Source: an uncultured Acidobacteriota bacterium (GTDB taxonomy: Bacteria; Acidobacteriota; Polarisedimenticolia; J045). Taken from it: a stretch of DNA of 64,000 nt. Position numbers: made by a program. This document shows positions 33,001 to 36,000 of the stretch, in pieces. Each line of letters opens with the position of its first letter. Within the stretch, counting starts at the first letter, position 1. The DNA is taken from contig CAVPCQ010000038.1 of the NCBI GenBank assembly GCA_963702425.1, forward strand, positions 4,992-68,991, read 5' to 3'.

Positions 33001-36000
33001 CCGACGGAGTCCCATCGTGCGCCGCATGCTCCAGTTGCTGTCATCAGGGTGCCTCGCCGCACTCGCGGGCGGGTGCGCCGCCGCCGATTCGCCGGCAGCC
33101 GAGGAATGGGCGCGCTGGATGCTGCGCGGGCTGCCCGGGGTCTCGGTCGCGTGCACCCCGAAGCTGGAAAGCGACCCAGCCATGACCGTCCACTGCGTCG
33201 ACCTGGAGATGCCGTGGAACGAGTTTCGGCGGGAGTGGGAGTCCGCCCTCCGGTCGGCCGGCCGGTCGTTTCCCGACACGGGGTGGCTCGATGAGGGGAA
33301 GCTGAAGCGCCGGCGCTACATCGTCTTCGACGTGCCCGTCGACGTTTTTCGAGACTCCGCGGGCTCGGGCCTGGTGATCGCGGTCCCGCGCTTCTTCCTG
33401 GATTGCGACGAGGTGAACTGGGGCGATGTGATCGACCTCGACCAGGACACCTCGGGGGAGATCACGCGCCCGCAGCTCGAGCACCGGGTCGAGGCCGTCT
33501 ACCCGGAACGCGAGCGCCGGGCCAGGCGCCTAGTGTCACGTAACCGAAGTCACGCTAACGCCGGGGCGGTCTGGCAAGCCGATGGCTGCGTTGCTCCTCC
33601 TTGCTGTACGGTTCAGTACAGCGTCGTCGTCGCGCCTTGCCCTCGGCTCACCATCCTCGCCCTGGCATTAACCTGACTTCGGTTACGTGACACTAGGCAG
33701 GGTCTGGATGATGGGACTGATCCGCACGGATGGGCACGTCGCGCCGCTCTGCATCAAGTCGTCGGAGGGCGCCACGCCCGCGATGAACTCCGCCGCGCTG
33801 CGCGCGCTCGCGCAGTGGCGCTACGCGCCGGCGCTGCGGGACGGCCAGCCGATCGCGGTGCGATTCGTGGTGGCCATCAGTTTCTCCGTCCGCTAGACGC
33901 GGCGGCGCACCGGCACCTACGGTGCACGCGAACCGACGCGCAGCATCGCCGCCGCTCCGATGCGCCGCTCGTCCCCCCGTCGCCCCTCGACGCGCCAGTA
34001 GAGCGAGCCGCCGTCGCGCGCCAGCGCCGTCGCGCGGCGCCACTGGTCGGCGCCCGGGGTCCACGACGTCGCACGGGTCCAGCGGCCGGAGGTCACGATC
34101 CGCCCGGCGGCCTGCGGGTCGGCGCTGAAGACGACGCGGCATTCGTCCATTCCGGCCGCGTCCCAGGAGAACGTCGGGAGCCGGTCGGGCACGGCCGCCG
34201 CCGCGCCGCCGCCCGCCGCCAAGCCCGCCGCCGTGTCCACCACCGCGCCATCGCCCGGCGCCAGCGGCCGCGGCGCGGTGTCGTCCGGGTACCACCGGGG
34301 GAACGCGTCCCCCCGCGGCCAGGCCTCGGCGCGCGCCGCGGCGCGCCGCAGCACGGACTCGACCTCCCACAGGAACGCCTCGGTCTGCACCGGCTTCGTA
34401 TTGAAGACCGCCGCGAACGCGCGGCCGTCGGTGATCCGCATCAGCAGCGCCGTCGAGCCGAAGAGCGAGCCGCCGTGCCAGACGGCGGCGCGCGGCCCGT
34501 CGGGACGCACGTACCAGCCCAGGCCGTACCAGGCATCGCGCAGGATCCAGGTCGATAGCTGCGGGCGGAGCAGCATCAGGCGCTGGGTACCGGGCGAAAG
34601 GAGATCCGGCCGCTCCGGCAGCCCGTCCACCGCCGTCATGAAGCGCACGAGGTCGATCGCGGAAGCGGTCCAGCCGCCCGCGCTGTCCATCGCCTCGATG
34701 TAAAACCCGCCATCCGGCCAGGCGACCAGGTCCTCCTCGTCCGGGAAGACCGAGCGGACGAGCGCGCGAACTCCGGAGTCGTAGTAGCGCACCTCGCCGG
34801 CTGGCCGGTCCGCGGGCCGGGAGCGCCCGATCCGCATCCGCGTGATCCCGAGCGGGGCGAGGATTGCGCTCCGCACGTACTCCTCGTAGCCCATCCCGGA
34901 AGCGTGCTCGATGACCCGGCCGAGCAGCGCGTAGCCGAAGTTGGAGTAGGAAAAGCGGCCGCCCGGCGAGAAGTCGAGCGGCCGACCCTTCACGAAGCGG
35001 ATCACCGTGCGCGCGTCGGCGGGGGCGGGGGCGTCGACGGCCTGCGCGGTGAGGCGCGGCGCGAACATCGGGTCGAGCGAGAGCAGGCGATCCCAGCCGG
35101 CGGAGTGGTTGAGCAGGTCGCGCACCGTGATCCGCTCCAGCCGCGGGTCGGGGCTGGCGCCGGCGGGAGGAGCGAGGTCGGGGAACATCGGGAAGACGCG
35201 CTCGTCGAGGCGCAGCCTCCCGTCCTCGACCAGTTCGAGGATCGCGGTCGCGGTCACCGTCTTGGAGACGCTGCCGATCCGGAAGACCGCATCCGGGGCG
35301 ACGGGCAGGCCGCGCGCGACGTCGGCGTAGCCGAAGCCGCGAGCGTAGACGAGGCGGTCGTCGCGGATCACGGCCAGCGCGCCGCCGGGGATCTCCCAGC
35401 GCTCCATCAGCGCCAGCATCTCGCGGTCGAAAGCGGCCAGGCCGGGCACGGCCGTGCCGGTGATCGGGAAGGGGTGCGTCTCGCGGGCGACGGGGGTCCG
35501 GCCGGGGGCGGGGGCCGGGGCGGCGGCAGGCAGGGCCGCGGGAGGCGGGGCAGCGCACGGTCCCGGCGTGGCCACGAGGCCCGTCGAGAGGAAGGCGACG
35601 ATCGCGAGGCGCCGGCCGGGCATCCGCGAGACCTCCGGGAGCGGGATTATGCCCGCCCCGGGGCCCCCCGGCTGCGCCGCCCGAAGGGGCCGGCCTTCGT
35701 GCCGGACCGACCGACGACGGGCAACCAGCGGGCCGGCACAGAGGCCGGCCCGACCGACGACAGGCAACCTGCGGGCCGGCACAGAGGCCGGCCCCTACGG
35801 CGTCATCAGGGAGTCGGCTCCTCGCCCGAGGTGCCGGCGGCGTTCTTCGCCGCGACCAGGTAGAACGACGAACCGCTCGCGGCCCCGCCGGTCGTGTCGC
35901 GCCACGCGGCCGACGTCGGTTCGCCGACCGCCCCGTACCCGCCGGTCGGCGTCCCCGAGCGGTAGACCGGGTAGGTGCGGGCCGCGTCGTGCAGTGCGTC

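Follow-up and report, generated by a model that had tools for sequence, protein, structure and literature searches.

The window analysed here, a 64,000-nucleotide stretch of an Acidobacteriota contig, holds one short sequence twice, and the locus raises the question of what kind of element this sequence is and how it came to occupy its two sites. A repeat search identified one two-copy repeat family in the window (33529-33696 and 55684-55851, 168 nt, 99% identity, 22,155 bp apart), and no further or degenerate copies of the element were found within the 64 kb. The two copies, A and B, have the same orientation and are identical at 159 of 161 nt (98.8%, two differing bases). In their alignment, identity begins and ends sharply at a CTAG on each side, and the flanks are unrelated. 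The two near-identical repeats 22 kb apart that were recognised in the preliminary description are thus real, with sharp borders and a length of 161 bp each. The dimensions given there, 159 bp with a 19-bp terminal inverted repeat (TIR), describe the same object but assign CTAG to the flanks; the element proper is 161 bp long and has a 20-nt TIR. We interpret it as a non-autonomous MITE of the IS630/Tc1-mariner superfamily, both ends of which are copies of an IS630-family IRR, and we assign this reading a probability of about 0.9. The features of copy A are the following.

33017..33532, + strand: TonB_C lipoprotein gene, 5' part; the ORF as it stands continues to 33676 inside the element
33530..33533, no strand: left CTAG of copy A, with the probable duplicated target at TA 33531-33532, from the C-TA...TA-G flanks
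33533..33693, + strand: MITE copy A (GTGTCAC...GTGACAC), inside the TonB-like gene; from the repeat search, the alignment and the restoration of the gene by removal of 33533-33695
33533..33552, + strand: left terminal inverted repeat of copy A, perfect over 20 nt, imperfect to about 33568
33603..33622, + strand: central hairpin of copy A, GCTGTAC-ggttca-GTACAGC
33674..33693, - strand: right terminal inverted repeat of copy A, perfect over 20 nt, imperfect from about 33658
33693..33696, no strand: right CTAG of copy A, with the other half of the probable duplication at TA 33694-33695
33696..33896, + strand: TonB-like gene, 3' part, with the rest of the TonB_C domain; its stop TAG (33894-33896) lies in an unoccupied CTAG (33893-33896)

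The 20-mer GTGTCACGTAACCGAAGTCA is found four times in the window, at each end of both copies, with 0 occurrences expected (100 shuffles). The inverted repeat is perfect over the 20 terminal nucleotides and extends to 41 nt at 90% identity, and the whole 161-bp element is a long imperfect palindrome. Either strand folds into one long hairpin, with energies of -101.8 kcal/mol (z = -11.8) and -115.2 kcal/mol (z = -15.6). The internal hairpin with a 7-bp stem that was reported earlier does exist at 33603-33622, but it is merely the tip of this whole-element hairpin. The element has no coding capacity, and the only ORFs that it contains are read-through frames.

Five full copies are known (A and B from the window, and L001, L002 and L004 from other genomes). 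All are exactly 161 nt long, with 95.7-98.8% identity and C-TA...TA-G at the borders of each, and both orientations with respect to the surrounding sequence are represented. Two of them (L001 and L002) belong to the Acidobacteriota MAG MFD02979.bin.1.81, which also carries a 33-bp remnant (L003); a deletion between two TAACC repeats that spared both termini accounts for it. A tRNA suspected by eye beside this remnant was not confirmed. The five full copies and the remnant occupy six different sites. The preliminary description would have been refuted by a total of two copies and no sign of mobility elsewhere; instead, four further copies were found in other genomes, and copy A is located in a gene that is intact elsewhere. 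The copy number appears low, at two in the 64-kb window and two plus one remnant in the MAG, whose three matching contigs alone total 4.27 Mb, as counted by an exact-20-mer scan in which diverged copies would be missed. With regard to the label 'previously unannotated' in the preliminary description, the element had no match in Rfam, among PLSDB plasmids or in IMG/VR.

Copy A has split a TonB-like lipoprotein gene and broken its TonB_C domain. Deletion of 163 nt (161 + 2; 33533-33695) in silico gives a single ORF in which TonB_C is complete (1.1e-13, with 3-78 of the 79 profile positions covered), whereas the ORF in its interrupted form has no Pfam match. Uninterrupted orthologues are present on four contigs, at 98% amino acid identity (P0001; L004, L005), about 94% nucleotide identity (L010) and 84% amino acid identity (P0002; L006), with L004, L005 and L010 coming from the metagenomes ERZ27247859, SRR27069943 and JGI 3300035200. 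Compared to these four intact alleles, copy A adds exactly 163 nt, that is 161 + 2. The Acidobacteria MAG GCA_025456445.1 is syntenic with the window at 86-87% nucleotide identity. The L004 contig harbors an element copy of its own at the TAG stop codon of the TonB gene, where the window, L010 and L006 have none. The internal site is occupied in the window only, and the stop site in L004 only. Occupancy thus differs between close relatives that are 98% identical. As the right flank of the L004 site can be aligned to the window over a few bases only, this pair is no proof of a target duplication.

None of the four empty alleles has a CTAG at the site of copy A. All four read GC(A/C)G, whereas an empty allele of canonical form would read CGCCTAGGC, and a canonical insertion would therefore need a prior two-base change. 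Changes private to the window lineage number four within 27 nt of the copy A junction, versus about 16 in the other ~990 nt. A less likely reading is that the integration of copy A was non-canonical or mutagenic, given these four substitutions near the junction and the absence of CTAG from every empty allele. Two other models of the junction, a 167-nt unit inserted without duplication together with a 4-nt deletion, and an insertion at the CA of GCAG, are both less parsimonious than a prior GC-to-CT change. The former is moreover at odds with the TonB stop site of the window, which has a CTAG although it is empty.

Copy B is positioned between two convergent genes.

53013..55688, + strand: Kelch / MopE / PKD / CARDB repeat protein gene, ending at the left border of copy B
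55685..55688, no strand: left CTAG of copy B, in which TAG serves as the Kelch/CARDB stop codon
55688..55848, + strand: MITE copy B, 161 bp, between the convergent genes
55848..55851, no strand: right CTAG of copy B, in which CTA is the TAG stop codon of the amino-acid permease gene on the minus strand
55848..57572, - strand: amino-acid permease gene, ending at the right border of copy B

Both stop codons are located in the flanking CTAGs, and both mRNAs would thus run straight into the element. No clean empty site for copy B was found among the closest relatives: L011 is devoid of the whole Kelch gene and the element, L012 has other genes in this region, and L013 ends before the stop codon. 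A composite transposon made of both copies and the 22 kb between them was also considered and rejected, as L010 is collinear across the site of copy A, and L011 joins window positions 48.8-52.8 kb (inside such a unit) to 55.87-56.4 kb (outside).

The position of copy B reflects a more general trend. The window contains 12 CTAG sequences versus 162 expected, an approximately 13-fold under-representation in this 72% GC genome. Four of the 12 flank the two copies; the native sites amount to 10, of which two are occupied, and several coincide with stop codons. Since CTAG is rare and contains TAG on both strands, insertions tend toward exact gene ends, as observed for copy B, L004, L003, L001 and L002. 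The element is thus a tidy example of target scarcity shaping the landing sites of a transposon.

Such locations might suggest that the MITE, with the same origin, has acquired an added role in its host, its hairpin serving as a transcript-end or stability element of either convergent transcript. The hairpin is strong on both strands and would be entered by both mRNAs at copy B, and bacterial MITEs are described as generally forming long stem-loops in transcripts (PMC2229807). However, the placement at stop codons is already explained by the TAG that CTAG contains on both strands, and copy A is plainly disruptive. The variable positions between copies are few and none is compensatory, in a set of copies too small for testing compensation. 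We regard this added role as unlikely. An equally doubtful extension would be that in this high-GC lineage CTAG, as the sole target open to the element, survives mostly in the form of TAG stops and steers the element to exact gene ends. Its hairpin of about 75 bp, readable from both strands, would then have been retained at convergent gene pairs as a signal for transcript ends or stability in both directions.

The origin of the MITE itself is indicated by its ends. The only match to the TIR in JGI metagenomes (L007) shows the terminal sequence of the element behind the 3' end of a 351-aa ORF. This ORF is recognised by the NCBIfam model transpos_IS630 (NF033545; 3.2e-67, 227 bits versus a cutoff of 100) and by Pfam DDE_3 and HTH_32, with no IS5-type model among the matches. 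Its candidate catalytic residues, D176, D258 and E294, were placed by eye only and have a DD35E spacing. No IS630-family gene in PLSDB plasmids reaches 50% identity to this transposase. Full-length copies of the IS, L008 (94% amino acid identity) and L009 (82%), are 1134 bp long with CTAG on both sides; the single IS end visible in L007 is flanked by CTGG. Both MITE ends are identical to the IRR of this IS at 20 of 20 nt in L007 and at 19 of 20 in L008, and the left end of copy B at 26 of 26, whereas the match to the IRL is only 14-16 of 20. The element shares only these 20-26 terminal nucleotides with the IS. Judged from sequence, the 1134-bp IS630-family IS is a plausible parent of the element. 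No IS was found by exact TIR in a related MAG, the one such MAG in the genome collection, and no IS630-type transposase was found in the window (tblastn with the cognate IS630-family transposase, best E = 1.6), in agreement, for this family, with what had been noted earlier. The proposal that the MITE was mobilised in trans is supported by the identity of its ends to an IS630-family IRR, by the absence of such a transposase from the window and by the differences in occupancy.

IS630-family elements insert at TA with duplication of the TA, and their transposase alone is sufficient for transposition (Feng and Colloms 2007, PMC2170065). IS630 prefers TA within CTAG, according to the citation of Tenzen and Ohtsubo 1991 in PMC2170065. 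The transposase of the L007-L009 IS is the probable mover of the MITE. Its gene would lie elsewhere in this genome, or else in a past genome or a co-resident one, and the protein would bind both ends via its N-terminal helix-turn-helix domains. By analogy with ISY100 and IS630, it would then excise the element and paste it into the TA of a 5'-CTAG-3' site, and the TA would be duplicated. Transposition would thus be of the cut-and-paste type, with occasional landing inside a gene, as for copy A.

TA and CTAG are indistinguishable as the duplicated unit by sequence alone, and TA is favored here by analogy with these systems. CTAG is present on both sides at all six MITE sites as well as at L008 and L009, and an intact CTAG on both sides of every copy would equally be expected from a 4-bp duplication. 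In that case, the element would have a length of 159 bp (TGTCAC...GTGACA) and would derive from, and be moved by, an IS5-family element that duplicates CTAG. A precedent is MITEPsy1 from Pseudomonas syringae, another small MITE tied to CTAG sites, which is 100 nt long, is reported to insert at and duplicate the 4 nt CTAG or YTAA, and is considered a likely derivative of the IS5-family ISPsy2 (PMC3189936). This origin is nevertheless very improbable for the present element, the ends of which share 20-26 identical nt with the IRR of an IS; the transposase of that IS scores well above the cutoff of the IS630-family model and has no IS5-type match. Moreover, full-length copies of that IS carry the same CTAG flanks, and the TA within CTAG is a known target of IS630.

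The long hairpin on either strand, and the location of copy B between convergent genes, where a terminator is expected, could also fit a non-mobile element, namely a conserved structured RNA or DNA signal (a small RNA gene, a bidirectional terminator or a REP/BIME-type palindrome) that was duplicated in the genome. The evidence leaves this reading with hardly any weight. A search against Rfam 15 gave 0 matches in the window at the gathering score and, at a relaxed threshold, only chance-level ones (E about 8). The element has no terminator-like T tract, and scans of both copies for promoter (sigma-70) and terminator consensus sequences were negative. Copy A disrupts a reading frame that four relatives have in intact form, occupancy varies among 98%-identical relatives, the ends are those of an IS630-family IS, and the variable positions are not compensatory. 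A RAYT-associated REP or BIME was rejected on account of the IS630-type ends, the position of copy A inside a gene and the size, 161 bp being far above the 20-40 nt given for REPs, palindromes that usually occur in high copy, in PMC3733652.

The preliminary description had further pointed to a recurring in-frame peptide, and the ORFs 32759..33676 and 55442..55831 do exist with a shared 48-residue tail encoded by the element, one tailed ORF being present in public databases (P0003, 219 aa). That the element is a coding module providing a C-terminal peptide (...VSRNRSH.NAGAVWQ...ALALT) to upstream genes is, however, the least credible reading, since the copy A ORF is the broken TonB-like gene running 48 codons into the element, its tail replacing the second half of the TonB_C domain in a hybrid without Pfam match, the copy B ORF is a spurious, alternative frame in the Pfam-supported Kelch/CARDB gene, which terminates at the edge of the element, two of the three entry frames meet a stop (TAG, TAA) within 15 nt, and P0003 forms a cluster of one sequence.

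An IS630-type MITE is an ordinary and well-known kind of repeat in bacteria, and this one opens no new question. Its closest counterpart is RUP, for which mobilisation by IS630-Spn1 was proposed (Oggioni and Claverys 1999, reviewed in PMC2229807). Both are small non-coding elements with IS630-like TIRs, and both have highly similar copies and are found within genes (IS transposase genes for RUP); RUP inserts at TA, as is probable for the present element. RUP is given there as 107 bp long with about 108 copies in a low-GC Gram-positive host, whereas the present element is 161 bp long, has at most three copies per genome so far and resides in a 72% GC Acidobacteriota genome. Unlike RUP, it always has a full CTAG context and two IRR-type ends. 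The putative parent IS resembles IS630 of Shigella sonnei and ISY100 of Synechocystis in its single transposase gene with an N-terminal HTH and DDE_3, its short inverted repeats and its CTAG/TA flanks; the MITE, unlike these, is devoid of a transposase gene. Correia/NEMIS elements of Neisseria and ERIC/IRU elements of enterobacteria are likewise bounded by TIRs with a terminal TA, give long stem-loop transcripts and are found both between and inside genes (PMC2229807). They have no sequence relation to the element, and no parent IS has been identified for them (PMC2229807), in contrast to the candidate parent described here.

A literature search returned no description of such an element in Acidobacteria. 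The present one is thus a further IS630-type MITE for which a plausible parent IS is at hand, and it comes from a phylum without such an element in the literature searched. In related Acidobacteriota MAGs, its copies will fragment assemblies and give rise to false ORFs. The deposited 219-aa protein of positions 33017-33676 consists of the broken TonB-like gene plus element sequence and is no real protein.

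A repeat search revealed a single two-copy direct-repeat family in the window (33529-33696 and 55684-55851, 168 nt, 99% identity), with an inverted repeat of 41-nt arms (90%) in each copy. Pairwise alignment of the copies with their flanks shows sharp identity borders at a CTAG on each side and unrelated DNA beyond, and the two near-identical copies of the preliminary description, about 22 kb apart, are thus real (spacing 22,155 bp). The 159 bp and 19-nt terminal inverted repeats (TIRs) proposed there denote the same object, with CTAG counted as flank; the G-to-C length of the element is 161 bp, and 159 of the 161 positions are identical between the two copies.

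MITE copy A: 33533-33693, 161 bp
MITE copy B: 55688-55848, 161 bp

Both ends of both copies carry the terminal 20-mer GTGTCACGTAACCGAAGTCA, which makes four occurrences in the window, whereas none is expected from 100 dinucleotide-preserving shuffles. The entire element is predicted to fold end to end on either strand (plus, -101.8 kcal/mol, z = -11.8; minus, -115.2 kcal/mol, z = -15.6). The internal 7-bp-stem hairpin noted previously (33603-33622) exists as the tip of this fold rather than as a separate structure. A putative added role for the host, with the element hairpin acting at transcript ends, is possible.

A scan of metagenomes with the TIR gave a single match, on contig L007, where the TIR lies beyond the stop of a 351-aa ORF. 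This ORF matches NCBIfam transpos_IS630 (3.2e-67, 227 bits, for a cutoff of 100 bits) and Pfam DDE_3, HTH_32, HTH_29 and HTH_23, and D176, D258 and E294, chosen by eye, are candidate catalytic residues with DD35E spacing. Homologous transposases (P0004, 94% and P0005, 82% identity) are found on contigs L008 and L009, which carry the complete insertion sequence (IS), 1134 bp long, bounded by imperfect inverted repeats and flanked on either side by CTAG. Both MITE ends match the right inverted repeat (IRR) of the IS at 20/20 nt in L007 and 19/20 in L008, and the left end of copy B matches it at 26/26, versus just 14-16/20 for the left inverted repeat. The element is an IS630-type MITE, a well-known kind, for which a candidate parent IS can be identified. 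A MITE of the IS5 type that duplicates 4 bp (CTAG), such as MITEPsy1 (PMC3189936), would agree with the CTAG flanks but not with the element ends, which are identical to those of an IS630-family IS. Past ~26-30 nt the MITE has no convincing likeness to the IS interior, and simple internal deletion of the IS is therefore ruled out as its origin. Since the halves of the MITE are alike in inverted orientation (~74% across the full length), the sequence suggests an IRR-bearing segment, duplicated in inverted form, as its origin. The transposase has no match in the window by tblastn (best E = 1.6), and the earlier statement that the window contains no transposase holds for the IS630 family.

ISY100, a member of the IS630 family, needs its transposase alone (Feng and Colloms 2007, PMC2170065). 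This transposase binds the inverted repeats via an N-terminal two-HTH domain; its cuts fall at the 3' ends and, at the 5' ends, 2 nt further in. ISY100 inserts at TA, which is duplicated (PMC2170065). A preference of IS630 for TA inside CTAG is cited in the same paper (Tenzen and Ohtsubo 1991, cited in PMC2170065). The C-TA...TA-G flanks are constant among the MITE copies and both full-length IS copies and thus fit an ISY100/IS630-type insertion; in such flanks, TA and CTAG duplications look alike. We conclude that the element would have been mobilised in trans by the IS of L007, L008 and L009 or by a close relative. CTAG is found 12 times in the window versus 162 expected from base composition. 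Four of these 12 sites flank copies A and B and eight are unoccupied, including 33893 at the stop codon of the TonB-like gene that is split by copy A.

ORF 32759..33676 enters copy A from its left side and a short ORF, 33687..33896, exits it in the frame expected for a 163-nt insertion. Left as it is, the interrupted ORF has no Pfam match, while joining 33532 to 33696 yields a single ORF with a complete TonB_C domain (PF03544, 1.1e-13, covering profile positions 3-78 of 79). Copy A therefore cuts a putative lipoprotein (N-terminus MLQLLSSGCLAALAGGC) midway through its TonB_C domain. Three relatives were retrieved when the repaired protein was used as query.

P0001: 98% identical to the repaired protein, uninterrupted, contigs L004 and L005
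P0002: 84% identical to the repaired protein, uninterrupted, contig L006
P0003: NCBI/ENA entry identical to the interrupted ORF of the window

The gene lacks an internal element in L004, L005, L006 and L010, the last a cluster member with ~94% nucleotide identity over 32941-34184, and the deposited 219-aa protein is a disrupted TonB-like gene.

At the copy A site, all four empty alleles read CGC GC(A/C) GGC AAG, and the window after excision of copy A reads CGC CTA GGC AGG. Four changes private to the window lineage (33511, 33530, 33531 and 33700) fall within 27 nt of the junction, versus ~16 differences from L004 in the remaining ~990 nt. Among them, a GC-to-CT change gives rise to the CTAG target, which none of the four empty alleles has. 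The length relation, exactly the element plus 2, favours ordinary insertion of copy A into a CTAG that an earlier mutation in this lineage would have produced. One loose end worth a look is the cluster of private substitutions, which may come from error-prone repair, from a short imported recombination tract or from pseudogene drift.

L004 holds a further copy in the opposite orientation, directly after the TAG stop of the TonB-like gene. This site is empty in the window (CCGCTAGACG), L010 and L006, and 98%-identical TonB genes therefore carry the element at different places less than 400 bp apart. The right flank in L004 can be aligned to the window for just a few bases, so that the pair shows differential occupancy and not duplication. 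When one genome per species was scanned, the exact TIR was found only in the uncultured Acidobacteriota MAG MFD02979.bin.1.81, which contains two full copies (L001 and L002) and one 33-bp remnant (L003, GTGTCACGTAACC followed by TGACTTCGGTTACGTGACAC); the same scan found no IS with the ends of the element in this MAG. The remnant, at 2770-2808, is flanked by CTAG, abuts the stop codon of a cytidine/deoxycytidylate-deaminase-family gene, and would be explained as the expected product of a deletion between the left-end TAACC and a TAACC near the right end. The five full copies share a length of exactly 161 nt, an identity of 95.7-98.8% and C-TA...TA-G flanks, and the copy number looks low in the window and the related MAG. 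The preliminary proposal of a MITE mobilised in trans was essentially right, given the split gene, the differential occupancy and the IS630-type ends. The gene disruption at copy A, the occupancy differences between relatives, and the lack of any Rfam match and of a T tract all contradict a reading as a non-mobile RNA, terminator or REP-like signal. Plasmid and viral contig collections gave no match for the element. A composite transposon made of copies A and B and the DNA between them is excluded by relatives that are collinear across both sites. In L005, a low-GC sequence (TACTACTGTGTCATAAGCTTGACG, 995-1018) follows the TonB stop codon (CTAG), unlike in the window, L004 and L010, and could be either the terminus of another TA/CTAG-targeting element or an artefact of assembly.

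The window has ~72% G+C throughout, so long spurious ORFs are common, and genes were told from these by Pfam. Copy B sits between two convergent genes.

53013-55688, + strand: Kelch/MopE/PKD/CARDB repeat protein gene (Pfam)
55848-57572, - strand: amino-acid permease gene (Pfam)

The TAG stop of the former is the TAG of the left CTAG of copy B, and the stop of the permease gene is the CTA of the right one. Copies abut stop codons here, in L004 and at the deaminase gene of L003, positions for which the TAG on both strands of CTAG is explanation enough. ORF 55442..55831 is an unsupported alternative frame within the Kelch/CARDB gene. The recurring peptide once ascribed to the element is to be dropped, since this ORF is spurious and the tail at copy A is the broken TonB-like gene reading on into the element. 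That the element is a coding module is further contradicted by the loss of the TonB_C match at copy A and by a stop within 15 nt in 2/3 entry frames. The data from relatives contain no empty site for copy B. In L011 (Acidobacteria MAG GCA_025456445.1, 86-87% nucleotide identity), the permease and peptidase S8 genes are 35 nt apart and the whole 3-kb stretch 52805-55865, with the Kelch/MopE/PKD/CARDB gene, copy B and a further 14 nt, is absent. Copy B is located at the edge of this indel, and the last five permease codons in the window differ from those of relatives.

The closest described case is RUP from Streptococcus pneumoniae, a repeat of 107 bp that inserts at TA and has ends similar to those of IS630-Spn1 (PMC2229807). 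Correia/NEMIS and ERIC share TA termini and long RNA stem-loops with the element (PMC2229807). The element stands apart by its sequence, host phylum and strict CTAG context, and further by its two IRR-type ends and apparently low copy number. A literature search found no description of an element of this kind in Acidobacteria.

A second, unrelated repeat family, REP-like in appearance, consists of short GC-rich palindromes, GGCCGGC-(ACAGAG/CTCTGT/CTCCGT)-GCCGGCC, some of which are arranged in tandem (35687-35772). The family is also found in L006, downstream of the TonB orthologue.

22100, 35731, 35774, 44612 and 44700: GC-rich palindromes, ~20 nt each

Between the tricorn-protease-like and TonB-like genes, two inverted 56-nt arms (32543-32598 and 32728-32783, 89% complementary, 129 nt apart), each made of two tandem ~31-nt units (TGTGCRTTCGAGGGGGTCCTCTGTCGCC), are also present in L004 and L005 and may represent operators or a further small element. 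Finally, ARAGORN called a 97-nt tRNA-Val(GAC) at 34443-34539 (- strand), inside the beta-lactamase-family ORF 33917-35782; the tRNA call is probably a false positive.
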